Source of the DNA: Escherichia phage vB_EcoS_UTEC10
Length of the DNA: 44,773 bases
Direction: 5' to 3' (one strand)
Sequence record: PP291582.1
This document shows, one piece after another, positions 13,030 to 42,846 of the stretch; positions within the stretch are counted from its first letter, which is position 1; each line of letters opens with the position of its first letter. The position numbers and the translations under genes were made by a program. The notes below the pieces were generated by a model that saw nothing but the letters and a program-made list of their open reading frames with translations, was not told the DNA's origin and made no database searches.

Positions 13030-13048
13030 CATCTGAATCAATTTAACT

Positions 13049-13072: not shown

Positions 13073-13085
13073 CTAAGGGTCGAAA

Positions 13086-13244
13086 ATGATGTTTTTCTGT
13101 AAACACGTTTATCGCTATATGAAACCGCTTCCTTGGTACGCGGATGAGTACCGGGCCGGGTACAGGCATGTGTGTATTTGCCGTGATTGTATGAAAATAA
13201 GACTCAGCGAAACGAAGGCACTGGATTTAAGGAAAAAGAAATGA
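13086..13244 (+). CDS. small Cys-rich protein (52 aa) coupled to the DNA polymerase gene
   Basis: Manually translated (MMFFCKHVYRYMKPLPWYADEYRAGYRHVCICRDCMK...); AAGGGT RBS; stop overlaps the polymerase ATG (ATGA at 13241). Confidence 0.35.
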   Translation: MMFFCKHVYRYMKPLPWYADEYRAGYRHVCICRDCMKIRLSETKALDLRKKK

Positions 13245-15412
13245 GCTACTTATACCTGGACTTTGAAACCTACAGCGACATCGATTTGAAGAAAGTCGGT
13301 TCCTACGCTTACGCCGAACACCCGTCAACCGAAGTGCTTATCTGCACATATGCTTTTGACGATGAGCCTGTAAGGGTATGGGATTGCACCGACGGCAGCG
13401 ACATGCCGGGCGATTTGCACCGCGCCTTGCGCCGCCTGGTGAAACCGAACAGTCGCATTAAGATGGTGTGGCACAACGGCTCAATGTTCGACCGTCTCAT
13501 CATGAAGCACTGCTGGGACTTTGATATTCCGGTAAGCAACACCATTGATACGATGATTTGGGCGTTTCGTCACGCGCTGCCGGGGTCACTCGATGCGTTG
13601 TGTGAAGTGCTTGGCGTATCTGCGGACAACGCAAAAGACAAACGCGGCAAGGCGCTCATACAACGTTTCTCTAAACCGACGCCGAAGAACTACAAAATCC
13701 GCCGCTACACCGCTGAAACGCACCCTGATGAGTGGGCGCTGTTCATCAAGTACGCCGTGAGTGACATCACTGCGATGCGTGAAGTCTTCCATAAGCTGCC
13801 GCGGTGGGGTAACTCCGAGTTCGAAGACCGTGTACTGGAGCTGGACCAGCTAATTAATGACCGCGGGTTTAAGGTTGACGTAGCGCTGGCGGAAGCTGCG
13901 ATTGAGGCTGTGGAGAAACACAAAGCGCAGTTACAGGAAGAAGCCCAACGTAAATACGGCGGCTCGCTGACTGGTAAGGATTTTCTGCCGATTCTGCGTG
14001 AACTGGCACCCGCGCACCGCATCCACAATGCGCAGAAGTCGACGCTGAATGACCTGCTGGCAGACGATGACTTACCTGACGACGCACGTACGATTATTGA
14101 AATGCGCCTTGGTGCGGCGTCCACTGCGTCAACGAAATATAACCCGCTGCTGTTGGGCCGCTCGTCGGACGACCGCCGTCGTGGTTGCATCCAGTATGGC
14201 GGGGCAAAGCGTACGCTACGGTTCGCCGGTAAAGGCTTTCAGCCGCAGAACCTGGCGCGCGGGTACTATCACGATGATGAACTGGATAAAGGCATTTCAG
14301 CGTTACTTAAGGGTCGTGCGCACCGCCGATTTGACGTAGCCAAGCTAACGGCATCAACGGTGCGTAGCTGCATTATCCCGGAAGCCGGGCATAAGTTTGT
14401 TGTCGCTGATTACTCGAACGTTGAAGGTCGCGGTCTTGCGTGGCTGGCGGGTGAAGACGATTTAATCGAAGTATTTGTAAACGGGGTTGATGTGTACAAG
14501 AAACTAGCATCAACGGTGTTCAACGTCGCGTATGAGGCCGTAACAAAGGACCAAAGACAAATCGCTAAAGCAATGGTTCTGGGCCTCGGCTACGCGGGGG
14601 GCGTAGGTGCTTTTGTCACGTTTGCTAAAAACTTAGGTCTTGATTTGAACGATATGACCAGCACTTTAGACGGGTCATTCCCTGACCACATCTGGGCCGC
14701 TACCGCACGCGGATATGAGTGGGCACGCATTCAGGAGGCCAAGAGACCGCCGCGGCCTGGTGAAAAGGATGACAGACCGTCGTATATTCTTGATAAGAAA
14801 GTGTGGCGTACCTGCGACGCTTTAAAGCGCATGTACCGAGAAGCTAATCCCGCAATAGTCCAATTCTGGCGGGATATTGAAGACGCGGCTATGGCAGCTA
14901 TCCGCAATCCGGGTAAAGAGTTCACCGCGGGGCCGCGAGGCGTTAAGTTTTCGCGTAACGTAGAGACAGATAACAACGGCAACAAAGTCGCCGGTTGGTG
15001 GTTGCGCATGACGTTGCCGTCGGGTCGTGTTATGTCCTACCCTGGCGTCGGATTAAGTGTGTCGAAAGAGACAGATGAAGACGGAAAGGTGTCTACTAAC
15101 GTGCGCATCAAGTATCAGGGTGAAAATCAGTTAACCCGTCAGTGGGGATTCCAGTACACATATTCCGGTAAACTCGTGGAAAACTGCACTCAGGCGCTGT
15201 GCCGTGATTTGCTGGCTAATGCACTGCTGAACGTAGAGGCAAACGGCTACCCGATTGTGCTTCATGTCCACGATGAGATTATCTGCGAGACACCAGATTT
15301 ACCAGAATACAATGTCGCAGAACTGGAACGATTGATGTGCGAATTACCGGAATGGGCCGAGGGGTTCCCTCTTGTAGCAGAAGGTGCGGAGATGAAGCGT
15401 TATGCTAAGTAA
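13241..15412 (+). CDS. family A DNA polymerase with N-terminal 3'-5' exonuclease domain
   Basis: Internal ATG of track ORF 13187..15412; LYLDFETYSD is an Exo I motif; C-terminal region has PolA-like motifs including HVHDEII. Confidence 0.85.
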   Translation: MSYLYLDFETYSDIDLKKVGSYAYAEHPSTEVLICTYAFDDEPVRVWDCTDGSDMPGDLHRALRRLVKPNSRIKMVWHNGSMFDRLIMKHCWDFDIPVSNTIDTMIWAFRHALPGSLDALCEVLGVSADNAKDKRGKALIQRFSKPTPKNYKIRRYTAETHPDEWALFIKYAVSDITAMREVFHKLPRWGNSEFEDRVLELDQLINDRGFKVDVALAEAAIEAVEKHKAQLQEEAQRKYGGSLTGKDFLPILRELAPAHRIHNAQKSTLNDLLADDDLPDDARTIIEMRLGAASTASTKYNPLLLGRSSDDRRRGCIQYGGAKRTLRFAGKGFQPQNLARGYYHDDELDKGISALLKGRAHRRFDVAKLTASTVRSCIIPEAGHKFVVADYSNVEGRGLAWLAGEDDLIEVFVNGVDVYKKLASTVFNVAYEAVTKDQRQIAKAMVLGLGYAGGVGAFVTFAKNLGLDLNDMTSTLDGSFPDHIWAATARGYEWARIQEAKRPPRPGEKDDRPSYILDKKVWRTCDALKRMYREANPAIVQFWRDIEDAAMAAIRNPGKEFTAGPRGVKFSRNVETDNNGNKVAGWWLRMTLPSGRVMSYPGVGLSVSKETDEDGKVSTNVRIKYQGENQLTRQWGFQYTYSGKLVENCTQALCRDLLANALLNVEANGYPIVLHVHDEIICETPDLPEYNVAELERLMCELPEWAEGFPLVAEGAEMKRYAK

Positions 15413-15533
15413 ACTGATTATCGCAGTACTGGCGGGATTTGCTGTCGGTGTCTACTGTCACGAGGGCCAATACGGCATGATGGTTGCCATATTGGGCATG
15501 TTCATCGCAATTTATATGTGGGTGCTGGAATGA
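15402..15533 (+). CDS. small two-TM membrane protein (43 aa)
   Basis: Manually translated (MLSKLIIAVLAGFAVGVYCHEGQYGMMVAILGMFIAIYMWVLE); overlaps the polymerase 3' end in another frame. Confidence 0.3.
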   Translation: MLSKLIIAVLAGFAVGVYCHEGQYGMMVAILGMFIAIYMWVLE

Positions 15534-15619
15534 AAATTTACTGGTTCTATGAAGAAGACTGCCGAATCTGTCCGCGCTGCGGAGTTGAGCATACGAAACG
15601 TGAGGGGTGCGTATTATGA
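15530..15619 (+). CDS. micro-protein with CxxC...CxxC-like zinc-ribbon pattern (29 aa)
   Basis: Manually translated (MKIYWFYEEDCRICPRCGVEHTKREGCVL); ATGA overlaps at both ends. Confidence 0.25.
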   Translation: MKIYWFYEEDCRICPRCGVEHTKREGCVL

Positions 15620-15810
15620 GTAACAAACCATTTAGTAAGAAACTAGCGGCGTTGGTGGATATGCCAGAATGGGAATTTATCATGGTAATGGGTTATGGGT
15701 TCTTCAGTGACGTTTGCGCCGGGTGTACGCACAAAGGCGTTTACTATTCGGAACACGACATCTATCAAGCGTACTTCCTGCGTAATCCAGATGCGGAGCC
15801 TTTGCTGTGA
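15616..15810 (+). CDS. hypothetical protein
   Basis: Internal ATG of track ORF 15607..15810 (MSNKPFSKK...). Confidence 0.45.
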   Translation: MSNKPFSKKLAALVDMPEWEFIMVMGYGFFSDVCAGCTHKGVYYSEHDIYQAYFLRNPDAEPLL

Positions 15811-16109
15811 CACCGGAAGGAAAAATACAGAAATACGCAAAAGAGCAATTCGAGGCCATTGGTGGCCTCGTTCGTAAACTTTCCTATGAGGGGCGCTCCG
15901 GCGCTCCCGACCTTCTGGTAATTCTCCCCGGCGGCATCGTCTGGTTCGTCGAGGTGAAGAAAGATGAAAACACGAAGCCAGACCCACACCAGCTACGGGA
16001 ACATGAGCGTATGCGTAAACGTGGTGCAAATGTTTTTGTCGTTGGTTCGTTTAAACAGGTTGACGACCTAATAGCGAACTATTATAGTAGTCATACACCA
16101 ACAATATAA
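15807..16109 (+). CDS. VRR-NUC domain nuclease
   Basis: GAPDLLVILPGGIVWFVEVKKD matches the VRR-NUC PD-(D/E)XK motif; GTG start overlapping the upstream stop. Confidence 0.65.
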   Translation: MTPEGKIQKYAKEQFEAIGGLVRKLSYEGRSGAPDLLVILPGGIVWFVEVKKDENTKPDPHQLREHERMRKRGANVFVVGSFKQVDDLIANYYSSHTPTI

Positions 16110-16120
16110 GGAATTGAGAA

Positions 16121-16312
16121 ATGAAACACGAATACGACCGCAAACCAGCACGCGACATCGTACCCGGCGACATGATTTTCAACGTTAAAACACGTCGTCC
16201 TGTTGCCGTAGATACGGTGTTCGTCGAGTCGAACGGTAAACTGGTTATCGAAGATGTAACTGGTAACGTCACGGCGTTCGGGCGTAAAGAGTTAGTTCTG
16301 GTGGCGAAATGA
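16121..16312 (+). CDS. hypothetical protein
   Basis: 63 aa track ORF with AAGGAATTGAG RBS. Confidence 0.5.
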   Translation: MKHEYDRKPARDIVPGDMIFNVKTRRPVAVDTVFVESNGKLVIEDVTGNVTAFGRKELVLVAK

Positions 16313-16992
16313 TTATCTGGTCATTGTTCGACGGTTCGGGCCTCATGGCCCAACCGTGGGCGGAAGCGGGCCATACTTGCTATTGTTTCAACTACGACGG
16401 CGCGGACCACGGAAACTATGCGCGATTGGGCGCAAAAGTTGAACACGAGAACATCCACTATATAAACGCGTGGATTGATAATAAGTTTGACTTCGAGGTT
16501 GCGCCAGATATTATTTTTGCGTTCCCTCCGTGTACAGATTTAGCCGTTAGCGGCGCGGCTCATTTCGAAACGAAGCGGAAGAAGAACCCAACTTTTCAGG
16601 TAGAGGCCGTGGTTACATGCAAAGTGGCTGCGCGTCTGGCTAAAAAGTACAACGTACCTTATATGATTGAGAACCCTGTTAGCGTTCTTTCGTCTTTATG
16701 GCGTAAGCCTGACTACTCGTTCAATCCATACGAATACGGCGGCTATTTACCCGAAGACGACACGCACCCAATGTTCCCTGAATACATAAAACCGCGGGAC
16801 GCGTACCCTAAGAAGACATGTATTTGGGCGGGTAACGGTTTTGTGATGCCCGTTAAATCATGTGTCGCCGTGGTTGGCGGTTACTCTGACCAACACAATA
16901 AATTAGGCGGTAAATCGGTGAGGACAAAAACAATCCGCAGCCTTACCCCGCGGGGTTTCGCAAAAGCAGTTTATGAGGCCAATCATGTCTAA
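16309..16992 (+). CDS. minimal DNA cytosine-C5 methyltransferase-like protein
   Basis: LFDGSG (motif I-like), FPPCTDLAVSG (PC catalytic motif IV-like), MIENP (motif VI-like); only 227 aa, so any target-recognition domain would be minimal. Confidence 0.45.
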   Translation: MIIWSLFDGSGLMAQPWAEAGHTCYCFNYDGADHGNYARLGAKVEHENIHYINAWIDNKFDFEVAPDIIFAFPPCTDLAVSGAAHFETKRKKNPTFQVEAVVTCKVAARLAKKYNVPYMIENPVSVLSSLWRKPDYSFNPYEYGGYLPEDDTHPMFPEYIKPRDAYPKKTCIWAGNGFVMPVKSCVAVVGGYSDQHNKLGGKSVRTKTIRSLTPRGFAKAVYEANHV

Positions 16993-18409
16993 GTTTAAAA
17001 GGCGCGAGTACCAGAAACTCATGACTTCGTTCATGCTACAACACCCACGTTGCAATATCTGGTGCGGTATGGGCGGCGGCAAGACCTCGTCGACAATGTG
17101 GGTTCTTAACCGACTGTTCCGCAACGGCCAACTTAACGATGACGACCGTGTGTTAATCCTTGCGCCGTTGCGTGTTGCGTCCGGCACATGGCCGGCAGAA
17201 CAAACTAAGTGGGGGTTCCCGTGTCTGCGCGTCGTAGATGCGACCGGTTCGGAGAAGCGCCGCATCGCGGCGCTGGAGTCCGATGCTAACGTGGTGTGCA
17301 CCAACTACGAAGTAATCGAGTGGCTTATTGACTACTACGGCAAAGACGACTGGCCTTTTACGGTTATCGTTGCCGATGAGAGCACGAAGTTGAAATCATT
17401 CCGCAGCCGTTCCGGTGGCAGCAAGAGAGCGAAGGCGCTTAGTAAAGTGGCGTTCGGTAAGGTTAAGCGTTTTATCAACCTTACGGGCACACCATCACCA
17501 AACGGACTCAAAGATTTGTGGGGCCAGAACTGGTTTATCGACGCTGGCGAGCGCCTGGGGTCTTCATACACGGCATTCACCGACCGCTGGTTTAACTCGG
17601 TACAGAAAGGCAAATCGGCTATGGCGCGCGAGTATCACGCCCGCCCGGGCGCGGACAATGAAATTCACCAGAAGATGAAGGACATTAGTCTCACGATTGA
17701 CGCCGCAGAGTGGTTCGGATGCGAAGCGCCGATTATTGTACCGGTTGAAATTGACCTGCCGAAGAAAGCGCGTCAGGCGTACATAGATATGGAGGAGAAG
17801 TTATTCGCGGAACTGGAGAGCGGAGAAGTTGAAGCGGCTAACGCGGCGGCGAAGACGTCTAAGTGTTTGCAGATTGCATCCGGTGCCGTATATGTGTCAG
17901 GCCCAGACGGCGAAGCAACCAAAGACTGGGAGAAAGTGCACGACACGAAACTTGATGCGCTGGAGTCCATTGTGGAGGAGTTGCAAGGCGCGCCGTTGCT
18001 TGTGGCCTATCAGTTCAAGCACGAACTGGAGCGCATCATTAAGCGGTTCCCGCAGGCGCAGGCGTTTGCAAAAGGCGCTAAGGGTAATAAGCAGATGGAA
18101 GCATGGAACCGTGGCGAAATCGAAATCTTATGCGTCCACCCCGCTTCAGCCGGGCATGGTTTGAATTTACAGGACGGCGGGCATCATCTGGCGTTTATTT
18201 CGCAAGGCTGGAACCTTGAGCACTATTTGCAGGTTGTCGAGCGCATAGGCCCAGTACGCCAGAAGCAGGCAGGCCACGAACGCCCGGTGTTCCTGTATCA
18301 CATAGTTGCTAAAGACACTCTTGATGAAGTTGTTGCCGCGCGTACAGACGAGAAAAGGTCTGTACAGGACGAACTGCTTAATTATATGAAGAGAAGGAGT
18401 AAGAAATGA
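16985..18409 (+). CDS. SNF2-family DNA helicase
   Basis: Internal ATG of track ORF 16973..18409; motif I GMGGGKT, motif II VIVADESTKLK, motif III NLTGTPSPNGLKDLW. Confidence 0.75.
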   Translation: MSKFKRREYQKLMTSFMLQHPRCNIWCGMGGGKTSSTMWVLNRLFRNGQLNDDDRVLILAPLRVASGTWPAEQTKWGFPCLRVVDATGSEKRRIAALESDANVVCTNYEVIEWLIDYYGKDDWPFTVIVADESTKLKSFRSRSGGSKRAKALSKVAFGKVKRFINLTGTPSPNGLKDLWGQNWFIDAGERLGSSYTAFTDRWFNSVQKGKSAMAREYHARPGADNEIHQKMKDISLTIDAAEWFGCEAPIIVPVEIDLPKKARQAYIDMEEKLFAELESGEVEAANAAAKTSKCLQIASGAVYVSGPDGEATKDWEKVHDTKLDALESIVEELQGAPLLVAYQFKHELERIIKRFPQAQAFAKGAKGNKQMEAWNRGEIEILCVHPASAGHGLNLQDGGHHLAFISQGWNLEHYLQVVERIGPVRQKQAGHERPVFLYHIVAKDTLDEVVAARTDEKRSVQDELLNYMKRRSKK

Positions 18410-18921
18410 TGGATTGCGAGGAGTTACTACTTAAGGCGCATCTGCTGGCGCGTGGGTTTGACGCCGACCGTCTCCGGGTAGTCTTAGCCCATGGCGTTGC
18501 CACATTCTACTTGTGGGGTTTTGACGGTAGGCTACGCGGATACCAGCATTACAAGCCACATGCTGAAAAGAACTGCAAGAATCCAAAGGATGCGCGGTAT
18601 TTTACCAGAACAACAAGACCGTGTTTATGGGGGCTTGAGTACTTGCCGCGTAGCGGGACCGTATTTGTTACCGAAAGCATATTTAAAGCTGTTGCTTTGA
18701 TGAATTGCGGGTTTAATGCAGTTAGCGCATTGGGGTCGAACATACCAGCTGACTTACGGCAGCAAATGTCACTTTTGCCGTATGAATGGGTGTGCGCCGG
18801 TGACAATGATAGAGCGGGCTTAAAGTTCAGCAAAACATTCACCAGAGGATTTGTATCTAACGACCTCGATGAACTTTGTGAAGAAGAAATAACGTATCTT
18901 GCGAGGAAATTTACCAGATGA
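18406..18921 (+). CDS. Toprim-domain protein
   Basis: VFVTESIFKA ... VCAGDNDRAG gives the conserved Glu and DxD of a Toprim fold; ATGA overlap with the helicase gene. Confidence 0.5.
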   Translation: MMDCEELLLKAHLLARGFDADRLRVVLAHGVATFYLWGFDGRLRGYQHYKPHAEKNCKNPKDARYFTRTTRPCLWGLEYLPRSGTVFVTESIFKAVALMNCGFNAVSALGSNIPADLRQQMSLLPYEWVCAGDNDRAGLKFSKTFTRGFVSNDLDELCEEEITYLARKFTR

Positions 18922-19059: not shown

Positions 19060-19086
19060 AAGGCCCCGTTTGGGGCCTTAGTTTTA
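19060..19086. terminator. bidirectional Rho-independent terminator (AAGGCCCC-GTTT-GGGGCCTT)
   Basis: 8-bp GC stem with T-rich flanks on both strands between the convergent replication and tail operons; overlaps the tailspike stop codon. Confidence 0.65.
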
Positions 19087-25750: not shown

Positions 25751-28092
25751 TATTTAAACCCCGGCGCGTTTCTTGTGGCCTTGCGGGCCTTGCTAATCTT
25801 ACTGTTGCTGTTCTGCAAAGATGCAGCAACTTGCTCTTCTATGATGATACGCAGACGGCCTTCATCATCCTGCTCGGTGGATACGTTGCCAATCTGACTC
25901 GATGTATTATTTACAATGGTAACATTAGATGGGCCGGAAGAAGACCCGTTTTGCCCCATAATTTCTTTCATCTGCTGCGCGGTGCGCACACGCGATGCGC
26001 CAGCGGGCATGATAACTTCGGGTTTACCGCGTTCAGCGATGGTGGAAGCCTGCCCTGCGGATAACTGTCCGCCCTGTTCACGCGCGGACCGGATAGCGGA
26101 AACCTGCGCCATACCCGCCCCAACGGCAGCGGCAGCGGCTACGGGGGCCAGGAACGGGCCAACTACAGGGATAGCGGCCGTTGACTTATAAGCCTCAATA
26201 GCTGCTGTGTACGTGGCTATGGTGGCCTGTACGATAGCGAATGCCTTATACGCACCAGAGGCCTCGCCCAACGCAGACCCGATGTTTGACGCCATGTTAC
26301 CGAAGGCGGTTGCCGTTGCGTCGGCACGCTTGGTGGCGTATTGCTCGTTGATGGCGTTAAGCGCGGCCTGATACTGCTTCTCACTAATAAGCCCTTGCTC
26401 ACGGTACTTATCTGCGACCGCCAGTTTCTGCTGCTCCTGGATGTCGAGAAGATCAAGCTCAGTAGCGTTCTGGCCAATAATCTGAGCCATGAAGTCGTCG
26501 CCTTTCTGCTTTTTCTCCTGCCGTTCTTTCTCGCGCTTATCCAATTCTTGCTGCCGTGCGGTATCCGCCTCCAGCATAATCTGAGTTTTGGCGTTCTCGT
26601 ATTGTTGGTCGCTAAGAAGCCTATTGCCATAGAACTCCTGTAGCTTGGTTAGCTGCTGTTCCTGGTTGGCTTCTATTTTCTGGAATACGTCATCATTGAG
26701 ATGAATCGACTGGTAGTAGAAATCCTCAGCAGCTTTCTTCTGGCGCTCGAACGCATCCGCGGCTTTCTTAGCGGCTTTTGCACCAGCGCTATCATCTTCG
26801 GATCCGCCACCAGTACCCGTTACCTTAAATTTACTAAGCCCTTCTTCCTTAGCAGCCTCTTTGTCGATGTCATACGCCGCGCGTTTAAGCGCGACGATAT
26901 TTTGCTGAGCCTCCACCTGTTCACGGAAACTTTTACGGGTCAGGTCAGCAACATCGCGCTGAGTATCCAGTGCCATCCCCAGCTGGAAGTTGATATTTTT
27001 TGCTACGTCTACAGATTCACCTGGTGTGAAGGCCGCTTTCACTAGTCGCCCAGCGTCCTGTGCCCCTTTAACCATATCCTCAAAGAAGCGCTCCATAGCG
27101 GTGAATTCTTCTGCGATGAAATCGAGAGCATCGGCGGCGGATTCCGCTATGGTTGTCGCCGTTTGTTCGCCGCTGTCAGTGATACTTTTACTGCTAAAAT
27201 CCCAAAGTTCATTCAGTCCGTTTATCGCATCGCCTACGAAGCCGAACGCGGCGTCAAACGACGTCTCTATGGCGCTGCCTACTTCTGACGCGATGTCGCC
27301 CCACATACGCATCTCAGCAGCAAGCTCCCCAGATGCAACCTGTGCATTAAGCTCCTGGATTAAGTCATCTATGTATCTGATAGGTTCGGCTAGGGCGCCA
27401 ACATCAAGACTGGTGGCCAGTGTCATTTTTAACTGCGACCATGAGTCGCTGGCACTGGCTATAGCGCCGTTGAGTGTGTTGGCCTGGTCCGCCATAGCAC
27501 CCGCAAAGTTTACGTTACCAATGTTAAGAAGGTACTGCTCGATATCAGCAGCGCTCTTCTTAACTACCGTAGTGGTGCCCTGGAATGTAAATTCAACATC
27601 GTTTTTGTTCTGCTTGGCCTTGATGCCGAACTCTTTAAGGCGCTCAAATTCAAATGTACTGGCGTCCGCAACGGCCTCAATCATCTGATTCAGGTCTTTA
27701 CCCATAGCGGCGGCGGTGTTGCCGTAGGAGCGCAACGCTTCTTCTGATGGGGTGAGGCCGAGCGCCACAAGTTTACGGAAACCCTCTACTGCCTGCTCGA
27801 GCCCGTAAGGAGTGTCGCGCGCGAAGTCTTGCAGGATGCTTAATGCCTGTCTTGCGCCCTGTGTGCTCCCGGTTAACGTTTTCAGGCTGGCGGACATCTT
27901 GTCCAGTTGCCGTTGGGAGTCCACCAGTTCCTGCGCGGCCTTGTAAGCGGTAGCGGCGACAATTGAAGCAAGGCCCGCTACGGCGGTCCCCGCTACTTTT
28001 GCCGACTTGGAGAGATTATCAAGACGGTCCGATGTAGCTTTCGCGCCTTGCTCTGATACTTTTACAACTAAACTAGCTACATCAGCCATCAT
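25750..28092 (-). CDS. tail tape measure protein
   Basis: 780 aa, long helical/coiled-coil protein rich in Ala/Gln/Glu; location downstream of the chaperone pair. Confidence 0.8.
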   Translation of the reverse strand: MMADVASLVVKVSEQGAKATSDRLDNLSKSAKVAGTAVAGLASIVAATAYKAAQELVDSQRQLDKMSASLKTLTGSTQGARQALSILQDFARDTPYGLEQAVEGFRKLVALGLTPSEEALRSYGNTAAAMGKDLNQMIEAVADASTFEFERLKEFGIKAKQNKNDVEFTFQGTTTVVKKSAADIEQYLLNIGNVNFAGAMADQANTLNGAIASASDSWSQLKMTLATSLDVGALAEPIRYIDDLIQELNAQVASGELAAEMRMWGDIASEVGSAIETSFDAAFGFVGDAINGLNELWDFSSKSITDSGEQTATTIAESAADALDFIAEEFTAMERFFEDMVKGAQDAGRLVKAAFTPGESVDVAKNINFQLGMALDTQRDVADLTRKSFREQVEAQQNIVALKRAAYDIDKEAAKEEGLSKFKVTGTGGGSEDDSAGAKAAKKAADAFERQKKAAEDFYYQSIHLNDDVFQKIEANQEQQLTKLQEFYGNRLLSDQQYENAKTQIMLEADTARQQELDKREKERQEKKQKGDDFMAQIIGQNATELDLLDIQEQQKLAVADKYREQGLISEKQYQAALNAINEQYATKRADATATAFGNMASNIGSALGEASGAYKAFAIVQATIATYTAAIEAYKSTAAIPVVGPFLAPVAAAAAVGAGMAQVSAIRSAREQGGQLSAGQASTIAERGKPEVIMPAGASRVRTAQQMKEIMGQNGSSSGPSNVTIVNNTSSQIGNVSTEQDDEGRLRIIIEEQVAASLQNSNSKISKARKATRNAPGFK

Positions 28093-28970: not shown

Positions 28971-28999
28971 TTGCAGGCCCCAATATAATAGGGTACTAT
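28971..28999 (+). promoter_or_regulatory. cassette promoter TTGCAG-N17-TACTAT with embedded TATAAT and AATAG-GGTA-CTATT repeat
   Basis: CCAATATAATAGGGTACTATTCA is repeated near-identically at 38644-38668 and 40816-40840. Confidence 0.55.
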
Positions 29000-29029
29000 T
29001 CACTTACACCAACAATGGAGGAATTTAAA

Positions 29030-29221
29030 ATGTCAAGTTTACCAGTTTCATTAATTCTGTTTGCACTTCTCGCCTATTTCGCGCCTTTCCTGGTTGCATA
29101 CTTCCGTAATCATAAAGCGAAGTTGGCAATATTCATGGCCAATCTGTTTCTTGGTTGGATTCTGTTGCCGTGGGTATTCATTTTAATCTGGGCTTGCAAC
29201 TCGAACGTGAAAGAGAAGTAA
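29030..29221 (+). CDS. small two-TM membrane protein, superinfection-immunity (Imm)-like
   Basis: Internal ATG with GGAGGAA RBS; 63 aa; NLFLGWILLPWVFILIWA resembles the conserved motif of small superinfection-immunity proteins. Confidence 0.5.
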   Translation: MSSLPVSLILFALLAYFAPFLVAYFRNHKAKLAIFMANLFLGWILLPWVFILIWACNSNVKEK

Positions 29222-29258
29222 GCTACTATAAGACAAATCCTAAGCACGAGGAATAAGC

Positions 29259-30389
29259 ATGGCCCGGAAGAAAATAACCGACGAACAGTTGCAGGAAGAA
29301 TTGAACGCCGGGATGAAGAATATCGATATAGCTCGTAAATACGGCATCTCCGACCGCGTTATTCGTATCCGTAAAGCGAAGCTGGCAAAGAAAGGCGTAG
29401 GCCACGGGCGCGACGTTAGTCACCTTGTACCAGACGGCTACAAGATTAAAGGAACGTCGTCGCTTGTGGACGAGTTCGGCAACACTAAGCTGCAATGGGT
29501 TAAGACCGACACCGATGCCGAACGTCAGGTCGAGTTAATGAAGGCCGTAATCGAGGGCATGAAGTCGGAGATTACCCCCGTTGCTCCTGTTAAAGCCGTT
29601 CGCACCAAACGAGACGACAAGCTACTCAACCTTTACACTGTGTCTGATTTCCATCTCGGTATGCTGGCATGGGCCGACGAGAGCGGCGATGACTGGGATA
29701 TGAAGATTGCAGAAGACCTGTTCTCTCGGTGGTTTGATGCTGCGTTTCAGAAAGCGCCAGATGCGGGAACAGGGGTTATTAACCTTCTTGGTGACTTCGC
29801 GCACTTTGATAGTCTGGATGCCGTTACGCCAGCGAGTGGTCATGTTCTTGACGCGGATACGCGCTATCAGAAACTGGTCCGCTACATGATTCGTATGGTC
29901 CGCCGTGTTGTCGATATGGCTCTGGTTAAACATAAAAATGTTCGCCTGCTTATCGTGCAAGGGAACCATGACGAATCAGGTATGATTTGGTTGGCTGAGA
30001 TGTTCAGTACGCTATACGACAACGAGCCTCGTGTGTTCGTCGATACGTCGCCGGATGTTTACAAGATGGTGCAACACGGCAAAACGACGCTGTTCTTCCA
30101 CCACGGGCATAAAGCACGCTTCGATGCTATCGAACCGGTTATGATTGCCAAGTTCCGCAAAGCGTTCGGTGAGAGCGTTTATAGCTACGCCCACGTGGGC
30201 CACCTGCACCATCAGAAGATTGTAGAAAGCCGTAACATGATTGTTGAGCAACACCGCACCTTAGCGGCTAAAGATGCTTACGCCTCTCGCGGCGGGTGGA
30301 TGTCGGGCCGTAGTGCAAACGTAATTACTTATAGCGCCGAATACGGCGAGGTCGCACGTTTAACTATTTCACCGGAGATGCTGGGATGA
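29259..30389 (+). CDS. HTH domain fused to calcineurin-like metallophosphoesterase
   Basis: N-terminus NIDIARKYGISDRVIRIRKAKL (HTH); C-terminal motifs DFHLG, GDFAHFD, GNHDE, HHGH, GHLHH match the DxH / GD / GNH[DE] / H / GHxH set. Confidence 0.7.
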   Translation: MARKKITDEQLQEELNAGMKNIDIARKYGISDRVIRIRKAKLAKKGVGHGRDVSHLVPDGYKIKGTSSLVDEFGNTKLQWVKTDTDAERQVELMKAVIEGMKSEITPVAPVKAVRTKRDDKLLNLYTVSDFHLGMLAWADESGDDWDMKIAEDLFSRWFDAAFQKAPDAGTGVINLLGDFAHFDSLDAVTPASGHVLDADTRYQKLVRYMIRMVRRVVDMALVKHKNVRLLIVQGNHDESGMIWLAEMFSTLYDNEPRVFVDTSPDVYKMVQHGKTTLFFHHGHKARFDAIEPVMIAKFRKAFGESVYSYAHVGHLHHQKIVESRNMIVEQHRTLAAKDAYASRGGWMSGRSANVITYSAEYGEVARLTISPEMLG

Positions 30390-30871
30390 AAAGTATTGTG
30401 ATTTTCGATTTAGATGGGACATTGGCTGATGGTACGCATCGTTTGCACCTGCTGCCGAAAGATAACTACAACGAAACGTGGGCGTGGAAGCCCTTTAACA
30501 TGGCGTGCAAAGATGATGAACCAATTAGAGATAACATCGAACTGTGTAACGCCCTCAATCGTCGCTACGCCGTTATTATTTTAACGGGCCGTAGTGATGA
30601 TGCAGAAAAAGAAACCAGAATGTGGTTGCAGCGCCACCGCGTCGAATTTTATCAGCTAATCATGCGCGGCAAACACGACAACAGAAAAGACATCGCAATT
30701 AAAGAAGAGGTGTTGCGTGCTATCGGGCTGGAGAGAATCTTGTGTGCATTCGATGATTCTCCGGCGGTAATTAAGCATTTCCGAGGCCTCGGCATAACCA
30801 CACACGCTGTCACTGAATACGACTGTAACGGTAACTCTACACACTTAAAATCACACGGGAGTGATAAATAA
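30386..30871 (+). CDS. HAD-family phosphatase (T4 Pnk phosphatase-domain-like)
   Basis: VIFDLDGTLADG is HAD motif I (DxDGT); later TGR and D-containing motifs; ATGA overlap with the upstream gene. Confidence 0.7.
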   Translation: MKSIVIFDLDGTLADGTHRLHLLPKDNYNETWAWKPFNMACKDDEPIRDNIELCNALNRRYAVIILTGRSDDAEKETRMWLQRHRVEFYQLIMRGKHDNRKDIAIKEEVLRAIGLERILCAFDDSPAVIKHFRGLGITTHAVTEYDCNGNSTHLKSHGSDK

Positions 30872-31425
30872 TGGCTAAGGTAATTATTCTTAATGGCCCT
30901 GCGGGTTGCGGGAAAGACACGCTTGCTAGGGAGCTGGTAGAAATGGGCTTTGCAAAAGGAACTACCAGTTTCAAGAATCCGATGTTCAATATTGCGCTGG
31001 CGGCGTTAGGCCCCGATACTTACCACGAGTTTCTCGACGGCTACGACGACCGGGCGCGGAAAGAAAAGCCGGAAGGCTTCCTTAACGGGTTGTCTCGGCG
31101 TCAGTTCATGATTGCCATTTCTGAGCAATTCATTAAACCGGTATTCGGTGACGATTATTTCGGTAAATATCTCGCTGAAAACTTGCCTGACGGCGACGAA
31201 GTTTTTGTAGTGTCCGACGGTGGATTCGCCAGTGAAGTGGTCCCTATCGTCGCCGCAGGGCATGACGTAAGAATTGTTCGCTTACACAGAGACGGCTATA
31301 CGTTCATCGGCGATAGCCGGGAGTATCTGTATGATGTTAGTGGCGTAAAAGATTACGACATCTACATCATACCGGGTGACGTTAAATCCAACGTCATAGA
31401 CATTGCTCTAAAATTAGGTTTGTAA
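30871..31425 (+). CDS. P-loop kinase (T4 gp1 dNMP-kinase-like, or polynucleotide-kinase-like)
   Basis: Walker A GPAGCGKDT near the N-terminus; overall layout resembles T4 gp1 (SGKDT Walker A, RLHRDG region). Confidence 0.65.
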   Translation: MAKVIILNGPAGCGKDTLARELVEMGFAKGTTSFKNPMFNIALAALGPDTYHEFLDGYDDRARKEKPEGFLNGLSRRQFMIAISEQFIKPVFGDDYFGKYLAENLPDGDEVFVVSDGGFASEVVPIVAAGHDVRIVRLHRDGYTFIGDSREYLYDVSGVKDYDIYIIPGDVKSNVIDIALKLGL

Positions 31426-31429
31426 GAAA

Positions 31430-31455
31430 AAGGCCCCGAAAGGGGCCTTAGTTTT
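31430..31455. terminator. bidirectional Rho-independent terminator (AAGGCCCC-GAAA-GGGGCCTT)
   Basis: Same stem and AGTTTTA flank as the 19060-19086 terminator; overlaps the major tail gene stop. Confidence 0.65.
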
Positions 31456-32620
31456 ATGCGTAGGTGATACGCTGGATAACAATAGACGACTGGTACTGGT
31501 TGCCAGTAGCCTGGCCCTCAATGGACTGAGTGATTGACTCAGGCCCGCCAATCTCTGGCGTAACCGCCGTAAGTTCCGCACGTTTCAGGCTGAAAGACAT
31601 AGCCCCGTTTACCCCCGCCAGAATAGAGTTAATCTCTACCTGCTGTTCGTTGATAAACTTCTGAATCATCGCCATGTCGTACAGCTTACCGGAGATGGAG
31701 AAGGTGTTAGCCGCGCGGCTACGCTCCACAAACGCTACGTTAGTGTTGCCGAGTTCGAACTGCGCCGACGCGCTGTTATCGTTGGTGATGGTCAGGCTAT
31801 CACAACGCAACGGCGTAGAACCGTCGAACACAGAAACGTCAACCGAGGAGAACGGCTCATCACCAAAAGTAACAGATGAGAAGTTGGAACCGGTCGGCGG
31901 CGTAGTGAGAATCTCCTGACTGCGACCGATGAATGGGAAGCTGCCAGTTACCATCGCGTTAACAGCCTGTTCGATGGTAAAACCAGAAACTTCCACGCCT
32001 TTGGTTAACGTGTACGCGTCAGTACCGCCGCACTGGCCTTTGTACCAGGTAAGGATAGAGAACGTCTTACACGTGTTACCGGTTTCCAGCGTGTCGCCGG
32101 TTTTAGCCTTACTAGTTTTTGTCTCGGTGGTCAGGGTGTGTTGGATGCCCGCACCAGTAACAACCGTAGCCGTTACTGCAGTAACAATAAATGGTTTTGC
32201 GTTATCGCCTGTTAAATCGGTAAATGCAATCAGGTCGCCTACCCCAACTCCGTCAGTGATAAAACTGCCGGTAGCGCGTGTGAACGTCTTGCCCGCCGGT
32301 GCGACCGTAATCGACAGACTGGACAGGGAAACACCGGATTGCCACGTAGAGCCTAAAGCACCAGCCAGCCAGTCATCCTGGCTTTTCGAGCTAAGCTCGA
32401 TCGCGTATTCGCCGCTAACCTGTTTGTTACCGGTGCGGATGGATGTAGTTTCACGGCTGCCGTCCAGTTCGTTGGAGGTCAGCGTGTCGCGGGTAATAGC
32501 AGGAACACCGCCTGTGTTGCGCAACGGCGACCATACCGGGTTAGCTGGTGTTACGCCCGGGGTGACTTCCGCCACATAGAATTGCGCGGTATTCGCGCCC
32601 TTAAAAGGAGTTGTAGCCAT
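31454..32620 (-). CDS. major tail (tube) protein
   Basis: About 388 aa Thr/Ser/Gly-rich protein downstream of the tail terminator gene; ATG at 32620 with AAGAGG RBS. Confidence 0.65.
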   Translation of the reverse strand: MATTPFKGANTAQFYVAEVTPGVTPANPVWSPLRNTGGVPAITRDTLTSNELDGSRETTSIRTGNKQVSGEYAIELSSKSQDDWLAGALGSTWQSGVSLSSLSITVAPAGKTFTRATGSFITDGVGVGDLIAFTDLTGDNAKPFIVTAVTATVVTGAGIQHTLTTETKTSKAKTGDTLETGNTCKTFSILTWYKGQCGGTDAYTLTKGVEVSGFTIEQAVNAMVTGSFPFIGRSQEILTTPPTGSNFSSVTFGDEPFSSVDVSVFDGSTPLRCDSLTITNDNSASAQFELGNTNVAFVERSRAANTFSISGKLYDMAMIQKFINEQQVEINSILAGVNGAMSFSLKRAELTAVTPEIGGPESITQSIEGQATGNQYQSSIVIQRITYA

Positions 32621-32622
32621 AT

Positions 32623-33036
32623 TCACAGCCTCTTGGTGAATGCAATAAAGTTAATTGACAATGGTCGTTTGGCCCATCCGTTTTCTACAATCAGCGGCCC
32701 CAGGCTAACCGATTGAACCTCGGCGCAGATGTCGTTACGTGAAAATGACTTACCTGCTTTAAACGCCGTGTTAAGTAAGTCTGCCATTTTATTGATTGGC
32801 GCGCTACCTTTCACCGATGCGTAGTTAATGTCTACCTGATAAACACCGGCGCGTTGTTCCGTGAAGAACAAATCAGCCTGCTCGGTATCCGCAAGTAGCA
32901 TGTAACTTGCCAGATACGGCGTATCGGTTGACGTCGGCGCGTCAATATTTTCAAGCGCAACCTTGATGCCGTTGGTGGTTCCGAAGGCTACCAGCGGCAC
33001 ATCGAACGCTTTGGTTAAGTCTTCAAAGTAGCCCAT
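32623..33036 (-). CDS. tail terminator / tail completion protein
   Basis: 137 aa; synteny immediately upstream of the major tail gene. Confidence 0.45.
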   Translation of the reverse strand: MGYFEDLTKAFDVPLVAFGTTNGIKVALENIDAPTSTDTPYLASYMLLADTEQADLFFTEQRAGVYQVDINYASVKGSAPINKMADLLNTAFKAGKSFSRNDICAEVQSVSLGPLIVENGWAKRPLSINFIAFTKRL

Positions 33037-38636: not shown

Positions 38637-38665
38637 TTGCGGACACCAATATAATAGGGTACTAT
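38637..38665 (+). promoter_or_regulatory. cassette promoter TTGCGG-N17-TACTAT with embedded AATAG-GGTA-CTATT repeat
   Basis: Near-identical to the promoters at 28971 and 40809. Confidence 0.55.
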
Positions 38666-38691
38666 TCATTACAACGAAACGAGGAGGGTGT

Positions 38692-39231
38692 ATGCTCACT
38701 AAACGTTCAGAAGCCATAGCCGCTGGTGATGATTATTACTTCACGGGAAAACCGTGTAAACGTGGGCATGTTGCGAAAAGGCATGTCCGCACCGGGTGCT
38801 ATGAGTGCGCTAAAGAGATACAAAAATCGTACCGAGAACGCAACGTTGTTTCTTGGGCGGCGAAAAACGCAAAATGGAGGCAAGAAAATAGAGACCGAAT
38901 AGCCGAAATTGACGCAGAGTACCGTAAGAAAAACAAAACCGCCAGGAAAGCCCAAAGGCTAAAGTATAAAACGGCAAAAAGAGCCAGGAGTATAAACATC
39001 AGGAATGATGAATTTGACCTATTAGTATTCGAAGAAGCGCAGGAGCTATGTCAACTACGAGCGGGCGAAACAGGTTTCGTATGGCATATCGACCACATGC
39101 TGCCGCTGCGTGCTAAAACTGTCTCGGGGCTGCATGTCGCAGAAAACATACAAGTTATCCCCGCGGTTCTGAATCTCTTAAAAGGTAATAAATTAATTTT
39201 CACCGAGAGAGGCTCTTGGTTGTCTTCCTGA
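38692..39231 (+). CDS. HNH endonuclease (free-standing)
   Basis: Internal ATG with GAGGAGGG RBS; GDDYYFTGKPCKRGH zinc-binding N-terminus and HIDHMLPLRAK...N HNH motif. Confidence 0.75.
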   Translation: MLTKRSEAIAAGDDYYFTGKPCKRGHVAKRHVRTGCYECAKEIQKSYRERNVVSWAAKNAKWRQENRDRIAEIDAEYRKKNKTARKAQRLKYKTAKRARSINIRNDEFDLLVFEEAQELCQLRAGETGFVWHIDHMLPLRAKTVSGLHVAENIQVIPAVLNLLKGNKLIFTERGSWLSS

Positions 39232-39236
39232 AATTG

Positions 39237-39259
39237 AGGCCCCTTAATGGGGCCTTTTA
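39237..39259 (+). terminator. Rho-independent terminator (AGGCCCC-TTAAT-GGGGCCT)
   Basis: GC stem followed by TTTTAT. Confidence 0.55.
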
Positions 39260-39721
39260 TCATTCTGGCTTAGTAACCTTCGCCGCTTTACTCACAGCCT
39301 CTACTCCATCAGCATCGGTAACTTTAACGAAGTATTCACCGACAGCATTAACTGTCAGAGACAAAGCCTCTTCCGGGGCGTTTACCACTTCCTTACCGTC
39401 TTTGTACCAGGTCAGCGCATACGGCGCTTTGCCCGCCTTAACTTCAACAGTAAGAGTCGCGCTGCCGTCTACCAATTCGGTGTCTTTCGGTTGTACAGAG
39501 AAATACACATCACCAGCGTCCGCCAGATACGGAATCTCGTAAAGCATACCAGCCGCCGGAAGCGCAATACCGGTTTTATCTGCAAACGGCATATCGTCTA
39601 CAGGTGTACCCAGTACACTTTCGTCCTCAATAAATACCACGTTCTCGCCAGAGCCAGACACGCGGGTGTACTGGACAACACGACGCGACGGTACATCAGT
39701 TACTTTGAAAAAGCCCATCAT
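39260..39721 (-). CDS. Ig-like (BIG2-type) domain virion protein
   Basis: C-terminal YALTWYKDGKEV...GEYFVKVTDADG Ig-like pattern; downstream of head morphogenesis gene. Confidence 0.5.
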   Translation of the reverse strand: MMGFFKVTDVPSRRVVQYTRVSGSGENVVFIEDESVLGTPVDDMPFADKTGIALPAAGMLYEIPYLADAGDVYFSVQPKDTELVDGSATLTVEVKAGKAPYALTWYKDGKEVVNAPEEALSLTVNAVGEYFVKVTDADGVEAVSKAAKVTKPE

Positions 39722-40764: not shown

Positions 40765-40808
40765 AATCCCTCCTGTAGTACCGACAGTGTAACGCATAAA
40801 AATAATAT

Positions 40809-40837
40809 TTGCAGACACCAATATAATAGGGTACTAT
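40809..40837 (+). promoter_or_regulatory. cassette promoter TTGCAG-N17-TACTAT with embedded AATAG-GGTA-CTATT repeat
   Basis: Third copy of CACCAATATAATAGGGTACTATTCA. Confidence 0.55.
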
Positions 40838-40864
40838 TCAGTTAACTTAAGCAGGAGATGAAAA

Positions 40865-41026
40865 ATGGTTACTTTGATTACCTGGGAACACGAAAATAGT
40901 CAACCTGAAACGCGTGAATTCGAAACTGTGGCGGCTTGCTACCGCCTGGCGTCAGCCGGATTCTATAAATCACAGATTGTAAATGAGTTTGGAGTGGTGG
41001 ATTATGAGTTTACGAAACAATCTTAA
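40865..41026 (+). CDS. hypothetical small protein (53 aa)
   Basis: Manually translated (MVTLITWEHENSQPETREFETVAACYRLASAGFYK...); AGGAGA RBS 8 nt upstream. Confidence 0.4.
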   Translation: MVTLITWEHENSQPETREFETVAACYRLASAGFYKSQIVNEFGVVDYEFTKQS

Positions 41027-41348
41027 GAATCACTTGAAGGTCTACGGACCCAAGGGGTTGCATTCATGGAACGGCGGGTATGACGTAAACGATGACCTGC
41101 CAATACGTAAAATAGCGCGCGCGGCGAGACGCAATGTAGAGCCTGGCGACGTGCTAGTTATACGAGATAATAATGTCATTGTTGAAGTTGAGAAAGTTCT
41201 TGGTGTGTTTCTCATAGTAATACCTGTTGATGTTGTTTTGCGTGACGCAAGGCCTTACCGAGAAGCTGGGAGCGGTAAAACTGGTAAATACACATACGGC
41301 AGGATTAAGATACATAAAACACATCTTGATAAATTTAAGGCCCCGTGA
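41004..41348 (+). CDS. hypothetical protein
   Basis: Internal ATG of track ORF 40983..41348 (MSLRNNLKNHL...); stop codon lies in the terminator loop. Confidence 0.45.
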   Translation: MSLRNNLKNHLKVYGPKGLHSWNGGYDVNDDLPIRKIARAARRNVEPGDVLVIRDNNVIVEVEKVLGVFLIVIPVDVVLRDARPYREAGSGKTGKYTYGRIKIHKTHLDKFKAP

Positions 41349-41356
41349 GGGGCCTT
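41337..41356 (+). terminator. Rho-independent terminator (AAGGCCCC-GTGA-GGGGCCTT)
   Basis: Same stem as the terminators at 19060 and 31430. Confidence 0.6.
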
Positions 41357-41358
41357 TC

Positions 41359-42846
41359 TTATTGCTGCGGATTCTGTTGGTCTTGCGGGTTAGCCGACTG
41401 CGGAATCTCCCCCGCCACCTGAGTAACCGCGCCCATCGGCAACGGTGCATCCTCGATAGCGTTCTGAATATCCTCATCCGTCCAGTCAGTTACCCCAGCT
41501 TTACGCAATGCCGCGTAGTAAGCGGTAGCTGGTAGCAGGCCTGCGTTAATATCCGCCATCCACTGAGCACGGTCCTGAGCGGTCATCGGTTGCAGGAAGA
41601 ACTCCATGTTCAGTTTGAACTCAACCTCTGTGTCCTCACGCAACCCTAGCATCGCAGCCACCCAGCGCAACGCATCGGTGTACGCCATGCTTACGTTACG
41701 TGCGATTGTCGCCATAACGGATGTATCCGCTCCACGTTGCAGGCGGGCCGATTCCGCGGTGATTTGCTGCGTCGGGGTGATAAGCTGCGCGCCAATCTGG
41801 ATTGCCTGATTCTCTTTATCCAGCATGTTCTGTTTGGCGAGGTTGTTCTCTCCCGCCTGAACCAGAAACGCATTGCCGCCGTAGCCAATGTTATGGCCTG
41901 AGCGCGACCCCATGCGCACGCCGTGAGGGTTGGCTTCTTTCCATTGCTCCATGCTCATGTTTTCACCAGGGGCGATGAACAGAGTTGGCTGGCCTACAAC
42001 AAAGCTGGACTCCTCATTGTCCGCGCTGTTGCGGAAATGCCCGATATTAAGTTCAGCCAACGGCAACAAAGGGGCATCGTCGATGGTTGCGTCGTTGTTG
42101 CTCGCTCCAATGAACGTGAAGGGGATTTTGCCGCGTAACTGTTCGCCAAGTTCCGGGAAGATTTCGATTACTTCACCCTGTGCACCACCTTCTGCATCGA
42201 AGCGATAGATTCGCTGGCGGTAGTGACCGTCAATAAGGTCAAGGACGCGGTATTGCTCACCGAACTTTGTCTCAAATTCCGCGCCGGGTTCTGAGTATTC
42301 CCATACTTCTCGCAACACAACCATTGTCACACGGTTAACTGAACCTACGCGAGTCAGTCGCCAGTTGATGATGTTCTCTGCGGTATAGAATGCGATGACC
42401 GGGTTTAATAAGCCCGCATTCTGTTCTGCCGCCGTCGCCGCGGCTGTCTCCGGGGCGTCCACCAGCAACCCGCCACGGCCTACTGAGTCAATCTCCATCA
42501 GCGTATCCTGCGCGTGCTGCCACAGCCCGACACCAGAACCGTCGGCGTTACGTAATAGGTACTCAAGCTCAGGCGGGATAATCTGCTCGGGGTCTTTGCG
42601 CATCACGGACCCGACCATCCCCGCCAGCGTTCTCTTGGTGAAGTTGTAGCAGATAGCGCCGTTCTCGTATTCTTCCTGGCGCTGTGCTGCATATTTAGGG
42701 TCCGGCTCGTTCTTCCCGACGTTGCGCAGATAGCGAATAAGGTCGCCTTCCAGCGCGTGGCGTACCTTCTGCCATTTATCGAAGTGATGCAGCCATTCCC
42801 GGTGTTTTGTCTTAACACCCTGATTCTGACCGTTCATAGTTAACAT
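41359..42846 (-). CDS. portal protein
   Basis: 495 aa immediately downstream of TerL; AAGAGGA RBS. Confidence 0.7.
   Translation of the reverse strand: MLTMNGQNQGVKTKHREWLHHFDKWQKVRHALEGDLIRYLRNVGKNEPDPKYAAQRQEEYENGAICYNFTKRTLAGMVGSVMRKDPEQIIPPELEYLLRNADGSGVGLWQHAQDTLMEIDSVGRGGLLVDAPETAAATAAEQNAGLLNPVIAFYTAENIINWRLTRVGSVNRVTMVVLREVWEYSEPGAEFETKFGEQYRVLDLIDGHYRQRIYRFDAEGGAQGEVIEIFPELGEQLRGKIPFTFIGASNNDATIDDAPLLPLAELNIGHFRNSADNEESSFVVGQPTLFIAPGENMSMEQWKEANPHGVRMGSRSGHNIGYGGNAFLVQAGENNLAKQNMLDKENQAIQIGAQLITPTQQITAESARLQRGADTSVMATIARNVSMAYTDALRWVAAMLGLREDTEVEFKLNMEFFLQPMTAQDRAQWMADINAGLLPATAYYAALRKAGVTDWTDEDIQNAIEDAPLPMGAVTQVAGEIPQSANPQDQQNPQQ

Follow-up and report, generated by a model that had tools for sequence, protein, structure and literature searches.

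Swapped accessory genes between a predicted early-type promoter and a hairpin terminator in the late module of a Kagunavirus-like coliphage

Morons are extra genes that sit between genes adjacent in related phages; they lie in the late region, have a promoter and terminator of their own and a deviant base composition, and carry accessory functions such as superinfection exclusion. They were reportedly described in lambdoid phages by Juhala et al. (2000) and Hendrix et al. (2000). For T4-type myoviruses, promoter-early stem-loop (PeSL) cassettes have been proposed as short homologies for modular shuffling (PMC2839356; PMC4122927). Here we analyse Escherichia phage vB_EcoS_UTEC10 (PP291582.1), whose 44,773 nucleotides we refer to as the window, and in which three plus-strand cassettes, S1, S2 and S3, all lie antisense within the late module. 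We think it probable that a sigma-70 promoter with a Cro-type operator at one end and a hairpin at the other bound early-type units here, and that S2 and S3 are accessory-gene slots whose cargo is exchanged within these shared sequences.

Over a 14-kb test stretch the window is about 90% identical, across about 90% of the length, to the Escherichia Kagunavirus phages fEg-Eco06, Golestan and K1G, and its gene order is that of the annotated K1G. By sequence it can be assigned to the Kagunavirus-like (Guernseyvirinae) virulent siphophages. Kagunaviruses are described as lytic (PMC9825357; PMC7203180), and neither an integrase nor a CI-type repressor appears in the annotation of the relative K1G. 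The window falls into three modules, each laid out as in K1G:

about 150-6706, minus strand: leftward operon of small early genes
7171-18921, plus strand: rightward replication module
19084-44690, minus strand: leftward late module (tail, head, portal and terminase proteins)

Each cassette opens with the same repeat. The 25-mer CMCCAATATAATAGGGTACTATTCA occurs exactly, on the plus strand, at 28978-29002, 38644-38668 and 40816-40840; the initial annotation had placed the last two correctly and the first one base off. None is expected in 100 dinucleotide-preserving shuffles, which rules out a chance repeat. The start codons of the first cassette genes (29030, 38692 and 40865) lie 23-27 nt past the end of the 25-mer and about 50 nt past its start, in keeping with the earlier placement of the repeat 30-60 bp upstream of the cassettes. 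Aligning the copies and their upstream regions, as had been suggested, extended the conservation 7 nt further 5' to TTGCrs, giving a unit of 32 bp. By sequence, the earlier reading of the repeat as the core of a cassette promoter holds at all three cassettes, but two more copies lie on the minus strand: a fourth, with 2 mismatches to the 25-mer, at 6738-6762, and a diverged fifth, found by fuzzy search, at 5068-5099. Since these two (S4 and S5) sit in the leftward early operon, the motif is not cassette-specific. The predicted promoters, which we call class A, are:

28971-29002, plus strand: S1 promoter, with -35 TTGCAG at 28971-28976, a 17-bp spacer, -10 TACTAT at 28994-28999 and box AATAGGGTACTATT at 28987-29000
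38637-38668, plus strand: S2 promoter, TTGCGG-N17-TACTAT, with box at 38653-38666
40809-40840, plus strand: S3 promoter, TTGCAG-N17-TACTAT, with box at 40825-40838, directly upstream of the head-morphogenesis gene and divergent from it
6738-6769, minus strand: S4 promoter, TTGCACACCCCAACATAATAGGATACTATTCA, a full 32-bp unit heading the leftward early operon (6706 down to about 150)
5068-5099, minus strand: S5 promoter, TTGCACACTAAGATAGAATAGGCTACTATTCA, diverged, within the leftward early operon

The other end of each plus-strand cassette is a AAGGCCCC-N4/5-GGGGCCTT hairpin, the GGCCCC-stem terminator that the initial annotation had correctly recognised there. These hairpins have folding energies of -16 to -20 kcal/mol and U-rich tails. 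As the AAGGCCCC hairpin is also found at 19060-19079, it is a general terminator of convergent junctions and not one confined to cassettes. The hairpins, listed without strand, are:

31430-31449: S1 terminator, AAGGCCCCGAAAGGGGCCTT, at the convergent junction with the tail gene 31454-32626 (minus strand), predicted to be bidirectional
39236-39256: S2 terminator, GAGGCCCCTTAATGGGGCCTT, at the convergent junction with the head-decoration gene 39260-39721 (minus strand)
41337-41356: S3 terminator, AAGGCCCCGTGAGGGGCCTT, at the convergent junction with the portal gene 41359-42846 (minus strand)
19060-19079: a fourth member of this hairpin family, AAGGCCCCGTTTGGGGCCTT, at the point of convergence between the rightward replication genes and the leftward tail-fibre gene

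With the palindromic AAGGCCCC hairpin closing each of them and terminating from both directions, the three cassettes would form self-contained early-type transcription units, antisense within the late head/tail operon.

The hairpin loop at a given site occurs as reverse-complement pairs across genomes (31430-31449 and 39236-39256; loci L001-L058). At S1 these are GAAA (13 genomes) with TTTC (6) and AAAC (2) with GTTT (1), and S2 has four such pairs. Within the perfectly palindromic stem, then, the loop has been flipped, which points to template switching or to recombination inside the hairpin.

By function, the closest known system is PeSL-mediated shuffling in T4-type phages. Both systems have repeated sigma-70-like early promoters (five copies in the window), AT-rich upstream sequences and GC-rich stem-loop terminators, and in both these elements border indels or replacements of small accessory genes, mostly ORFans, between close relatives. 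In PeSL cassettes, however, promoter and stem-loop form one composite motif 5' of each open reading frame (ORF), in same-strand arrays, whereas here 200-2700 bp separate the promoter from the hairpin, which closes the cassette at its 3' end; only in an empty slot of the relative BEU33 do they adjoin. The cassettes of the window are also solitary and antisense, in the late module of a 45-kb virulent siphophage; their promoter contains an operator-like palindrome, and their perfectly palindromic hairpin is common to all convergent junctions.

To compare cargo, we used nine complete genomes and 49 IMG/VR loci from about 30 contigs, representing about 40 relatives. We assigned 102 promoter instances to sites by their 25-bp upstream flank (S1 32, S2 30, S3 12, S4 12, S5 12) and defined cargo classes as clusters of the DNA between the promoter and the first GGCCCC-type hairpin. 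Promoter, hairpin and flanks are kept at S2 and S3, yet the cargo there falls into no fewer than 18 unrelated classes, the shortest being 10 bp (empty) and the longest 795 bp. On the left, conservation runs through TATTCA, after which come a short leader with a ribosome-binding site, drawn from a small set of partly mosaic types, and then unrelated ORFs; on the right, the stop codon is followed by AAACT, the hairpin and the site-specific flank. Only two late-module stretches of the window, 38669-39230 and 40767-41392, are absent from nearly all nine complete relatives, and the first of them runs exactly from the first base past the S2 promoter to just before the hairpin. Four cargo classes occupy either S2 or S3, depending on the genome; between the S2 and S3 copies, similarity begins 5-10 bp upstream of the -35 and stops no more than 2 bp from where the hairpin ends, and the 140-bp flanks show none.

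Three states of the slots are observed: hairpin only, promoter with hairpin, and promoter, cargo and hairpin. Neither K1G nor LF7074P1 has a promoter at S2 or S3, and K1G carries the hairpin AGCCCCTTTCGGGGCT alone, without an ORF, at both. The S2 promoters are a mixture of S1-like and S3-like variants. In 5 of the 18 S2/S3 cargo classes the last ORF runs into the hairpin arm and stops in the loop, mostly as ...KAP* (window 40983-41348; L002, L036, L041, L053 and L061), and such ORFs look as though they lacked a stop codon of their own when they were joined to the terminator. The alignments show that the slots exist and that their cargo is replaced wholesale. The replacement junctions fall at the promoter/leader and the hairpin, and cargo has crossed not only from slot to slot but also between genera and between families.

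An extra cassette site lies between the scaffold-side gene and the spanin genes in L007 (EP-B-K_E2; 26914-26945, minus strand) and L061 (SaI_NFG_5577; 460-1060). It corresponds to about position 37800 of the window, which has only a 28-bp gap there.

How cargo would be replaced can be outlined. At S2 and S3 the promoter, short leader and hairpin would stay put or travel as one, and the ORFs between them would be replaced, most likely by recombination during co-infection in the shared 32-bp promoter plus leader and in the roughly 25-bp AAACT-hairpin. Cargo is drawn from other Kagunaviruses, Salmonella Jerseyviruses and T1-like phages. We infer homology-driven exchange from the mosaic leaders, the mixed S2 promoter variants, the ORFs fused into the hairpin and a possible recombination module in the phage itself: a PD-(D/E)XK nuclease gene (DUF2800) adjoins a gene of the DUF2815 family (Pfam; K1G annotation), and the two might form such a module.

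The initial annotation had likened the cassettes to morons, as portable promoter-gene-terminator units, and in respect of cargo swapping the comparison holds at S2 and S3. The cargo there lies between genes that adjoin in K1G and, as noted, is missing from nearly all of the nine complete relatives; at the level of sequence it has its own promoter upstream and a hairpin terminator downstream; and its GC content (45.7% at S2 and 43.3% at S3) differs from the 53-54% of the neighbouring late genes. These are three of four moron traits. The fourth, expression from a repressed prophage as in classical morons, is not found and does not apply, because the phage is virulent. A further difference is that the flanking promoter and terminator are here conserved repeats, reused for many cargoes at fixed slots.

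The three cassettes of the window differ in what they carry. S1 (28971-31449) lies between a tail gene and the tail-assembly chaperone, S2 (38637-39256) between the head-decoration gene and the spanin genes, and S3 (40809-41356) between the portal and head-morphogenesis genes. Their cargo is:

29030-31425, plus strand: S1 cargo, four genes, the same as K1G gp20-23
29030-29221, plus strand: S1, Imm-like superinfection immunity protein
29259-30389, plus strand: S1, metallophosphoesterase, annotated as 'DNA repair exonuclease'
30386-30871, plus strand: S1, polynucleotide-kinase-type HAD phosphatase
30871-31425, plus strand: S1, P-loop kinase
38692-39231, plus strand: S2, 179-residue endonuclease-VII-like protein (phrog_1035), 98.7% identical in DNA to Salmonella phage L223
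40865-41026, plus strand: S3, DUF7170 protein
40983 or 41004 to 41348, plus strand: S3, ORF of 114-121 residues without a family match, with its stop codon in the hairpin loop

The S2 gene is found in no Escherichia Kagunavirus of GenBank; at 90-98% identity it occurs in 29 Salmonella and 5 Cronobacter phage records. Against the Jerseyvirus L223, which has it in the same slot, identity is 80-85% in the late genes on either side and 81-91% across promoter, leader and hairpin. An ORF at 98.7% between flanks at 80-85% indicates that the gene was recently transferred from one genus to another, the borders of the slot being the junctions.

At the DNA level the S3 cargo as a whole has no match among GenBank phages. 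Its DUF7170 gene shares 77-81% identity with genes of T1-like Drexlerviridae, which stand behind a different hairpin and leader and have no evident class A promoter within 140 nt upstream. The second S3 ORF has protein matches in six records only. Salmonella phage SaI_NFG_5577 has both S3 genes together, with the same KAP-stop-in-the-hairpin end, behind a TTGACA-N17-TAATAT promoter and next to the spanin genes.

The nature of the S2 cargo raises the question whether the slots are homing sites, with cargo spread by endonuclease-driven homing and not by general recombination at promoter and terminator. The window's S2 protein is endonuclease-VII/HNH-like and its gene nearly unchanged across genera, and the K1G structural module has a separate mobE-like homing endonuclease. 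Nuclease-like cargo, however, makes up one of about 18 classes, the others comprising an N6/N4 DNA methyltransferase, a clamp-like protein, a lipoprotein, small membrane proteins and, for the most part, ORFans, and all classes have the same boundaries whether nuclease-like or not. We therefore consider homing very unlikely.

Two smaller features adjoin class A promoters. The only above-threshold Rfam match, an int-alpA RNA (RF02996; 28888-28952, minus strand; 36.4 bits against a gathering threshold of 35.8, E = 5e-4), adjoins the S1 promoter in back-to-back orientation; it falls within the tail-assembly-chaperone leader, and this flank is kept in all relatives. A 72-residue gene (phrog_7673; 6488-6706, minus strand) is inserted in the leader right after the S4 promoter in the window, L002 and L036, where K1G and most relatives go straight from the S4 promoter to the next gene (MFK...). 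The leader of this gene, cgaaacgagacataaggaattyagaaATG, is of a type used by several S2/S3 cargoes.

The repeat itself was characterised by a position profile of 91 distinct instances from the window and 58 related loci. There is essentially no variation in TTGC or in TACTATTCA, which begins 17 nt after the TTGCAC hexamer, and the upstream positions are A-rich. We predict that the 32-bp repeat is a promoter of host sigma-70 layout, with an A-rich, UP-like upstream region, a -35 of TTGCAC, a 17-bp spacer and a -10 of TACTAT; its activity and timing are likewise predictions made from sequence. TTG at the -35 and A-11/T-7 in the -10 are sigma-70-type features, and one Jerseyvirus copy has a better -35, TTGACG, at the same position. 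The 32-mer was found in 240 GenBank phage records, all of them Guernseyvirinae (Kagunavirus, Jerseyvirus) or close kin, with 1-4 strong copies each. Rfam gave no match for the promoter or the cassettes, save for a sub-threshold stem-loop on the S1 hairpin (E = 0.93). A host ArgR box (TGAAT-N4-ATTCA) was considered and rejected because its spacing does not match.

The motif has been listed in Kagunavirus papers: the PHIRE 'phage promoters' of fBC-Eco01 (PMC9825357) and Golestan (PMC7203180), seven copies in each phage, are the same motif, and the box region, reverse-complemented, gives the published consensus tgAATAGTa-ccTATTat-T (PMC9825357). The authors of the fBC-Eco01 genome label these sites promoters for a phage-encoded RNA polymerase (PMC9825357), and long, near-identical promoters are indeed typical of T7-like systems. 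We give this explanation almost no credence. No RNA polymerase gene was found among the window ORFs of more than 400 residues (Pfam scan) or in the K1G annotation and BLAST feature names, these ORFs being otherwise assigned, with helicase-primase, DNA polymerase A, SNF2 helicase, PD-(D/E)XK nuclease and tail proteins among the large ones; the label is thus unsupported. The layout of the motif is moreover that of sigma-70, and the 14-bp box at its centre occurs in both orientations relative to transcription, which is unfit for the promoter of a single-subunit polymerase. The attribution appears to be a carry-over from the usual application of PHIRE, which is to search for phage-specific promoters. 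The two papers list the sites only, without the sigma-70 layout, the operator-like symmetry or the variable-cargo slots. No earlier description of the slot architecture or the operator-like symmetry in Guernseyvirinae was found in the searchable literature.

The centre of the repeat is a 14-bp quasi-palindrome, AATAG-N4-CTATT, which occurs nine times in the window against 0 expected. Phage 434 operators likewise span 14 bp; their outer bases are conserved and their centre varies. The nine boxes comprise those of the five class A promoters, three in promoters that we call class B, and one at a site without a -35 (5396-5409). In class B the same 18-22-bp element lies inside the spacer, in the opposite orientation to class A. 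These predicted promoters are:

10201-10230, plus strand: class B promoter TTGACA-N18-TATAGT, with box AATAGTTCGCTATT (10212-10225) in the spacer
12321-12349, plus strand: class B promoter TTGACA-N17-TATAGT, with box at 12331-12344
16060-16088, plus strand: class B promoter TTGACG-N17-TATAGT, with box at 16070-16083

In our reading of the alignments, class A cannot be class B read in reverse, as its reverse strand has no -35 at a usable spacing. The box at 5396-5409, just upstream of the hairpin ACGCTGCTACACAGCAGCGT in the early operon, is kept in several relatives and may be an operator-only site or a decayed promoter.

Across ten complete genomes the box always stands in such promoter contexts, over the -10 or in the spacer, with conserved arms and four variable central bases, which is the signature of a site for a dimeric protein and not of RNA polymerase contacts. 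A candidate for that protein is encoded nearby:

9921-10136, minus strand: 71-residue HTH_3 protein, 434 Cro-like, candidate box-binding regulator (Pfam HTH_3 1.5e-12; PDB 1zug E = 5.6e-7)

The protein is as long as 434 Cro (PDB 1zug; 71 residues each) and present in all relatives, 94-99% conserved in Kagunaviruses and 51% identical in a Jerseyvirus. Its gene is divergent from the class B promoter at 10201, and the 125-bp region between them holds two boxes 45 bp apart, one of which is a tenth box, with one mismatch, at 10165-10182, within the extended -10 promoter of the gene (TGGTACTAT). The 14-bp box is most likely the operator, still putative, of the phage's own 434-Cro-like protein. Such a role would account for the base-for-base conservation of what is nominally a spacer and for the identity of the cassette promoters, and the protein would coordinately shut off or tune about ten early-type promoters. 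The likeness to 434 Cro (PDB 1zug, 3cro) lies in the HTH_3 protein and in 14-bp sites with conserved arms and a variable centre that overlap promoter elements. It differs in that there is no CI-like gene (K1G annotation) and no tripartite OR, only two boxes beside the cro-like gene; the boxes of the window are instead spread over at least eight promoters of a virulent phage, and their half-site, AATAG, is different.

Several observations weigh against the account developed so far. As regards the promoter, TTGCAG and TACTAT match the consensus hexamers at 3/6 and 4/6 positions only, and it was because of the 3/6 match that a consensus promoter scan did not list the class A sites. A perfect TATAAT inside the supposed spacer is a possible alternative or additional -10. 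As the sole -10 it was rejected: it has no conserved -35 17 bp upstream, whereas TTGC is invariant 17 bp before TACTAT and the Jerseyvirus TTGACG is found there; TATAAT is possibly, at most, a second, overlapping -10. RNA sequencing of Kagunavirus B4 puts the S1 immunity gene in a 'late' class together with DNA polymerase (PMC12645636), in a series (eight time points over 120 min, 57 Glimmer-predicted genes) too coarse to time the cassettes. The link between the Cro-like protein and the box is one of proximity and geometry only, and a second small helix-turn-helix protein, HTH_17 (7171-7374), is an alternative candidate regulator.

Other such points concern the slots. Because an exact 18-mer was used to retrieve the IMG/VR loci, the motif looks more conserved over that part than it is. 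Class A appears to be the standard early-type promoter of the phage and not an element specific to cassettes, and the conservation of the boundaries could come partly from selection on function instead of from recombination there. S1 is present in all relatives examined, mostly with the same genes, so the comparison of cargo in relatives proposed in the initial annotation found the expected replacement at S2 and S3 but not at S1. Finally, the empty S2 slot of BEU33 (L005, 4320-4375, minus strand) has only 10 nt between promoter and hairpin; its flanks correspond to those of the L010 slot, which carries a 67-residue ORF, and the deletion ends at gttaa and gttgaa. It looks like a microhomology deletion and not like a crossover between promoter and terminator, and it shows that the slots are shaped by illegitimate events too.

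Much of this is what one would expect if class A sites were ordinary early promoters, kept identical by selection on promoter and operator, and if cargo turned over by illegitimate recombination, the survivors keeping promoter and terminator and the repeats having no mechanistic role. The same promoter serves the core early operon at S4 and S5, where site-specific variants are retained across genomes as orthologous conservation predicts; S1 is universal; the BEU33 deletion fits; and the early operon is mosaic without obvious repeats at every junction. Set against this are the identical nucleotide-level boundaries of at least 18 cargoes at two sites, the four cargoes found at both S2 and S3 with similarity from promoter to hairpin, the leaders that are mosaics of a few shared types, the mixed S1-like and S3-like variants among S2 promoters, and the cargo ORFs fused into the hairpin, which together form the pattern expected from crossovers inside shared sequences. 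We accordingly regard illegitimate turnover behind ordinary promoters as rather unlikely to be the whole explanation, and continue to favour exchange within the shared promoter, leader and hairpin.

Apart from the cassettes, the 400-bp gap between the divergent early operons contains a further element (6842-7127, minus strand): a promoter-like TTGACA site (7127-7122) and, about 265 nt further on, the hairpin gggcaggcTTAGggcctgccc with a T-run (6862-6842). The only ORFs listed there are a GTG-initiated one of 51 residues (6871-7026, minus strand) and a GTG-initiated one of 116 residues on the other strand, and the element may be a small RNA or a tiny gene.

A broader proposal, which we advance tentatively, is that Guernseyvirinae keep plug-in accessory slots in which an operator-bearing early promoter and a bidirectional terminator serve as homology arms for the phage's recombination, amounting to an integrase-free cassette system in a virulent phage. 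If so, a captured ORF would be instantly expressed, insulated from the late operon and co-regulated with the early genes, and ORFs would be freely exchangeable across slots, genera (Kagunavirus, Jerseyvirus) and families (Drexlerviridae). The analysis also corrects the published phage-polymerase label of the motif and predicts a circuit in which one Cro-like protein would act on about ten promoters.

Small virulent siphophages of the Guernseyvirinae kind are common phage-therapy isolates. The slots, two or three positions in the structural module, would be natural, insulated and promoter-equipped, and would show where accessory genes such as methyltransferases, exclusion proteins and nucleases could be inserted safely, and where the host-range and anti-defence determinants of near-identical phages may be sought. 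They would also offer a compact test case for whether mosaicism is driven by short conserved regulatory sequences at which recombination takes place, or by illegitimate joins that form at random and are then sifted by selection.

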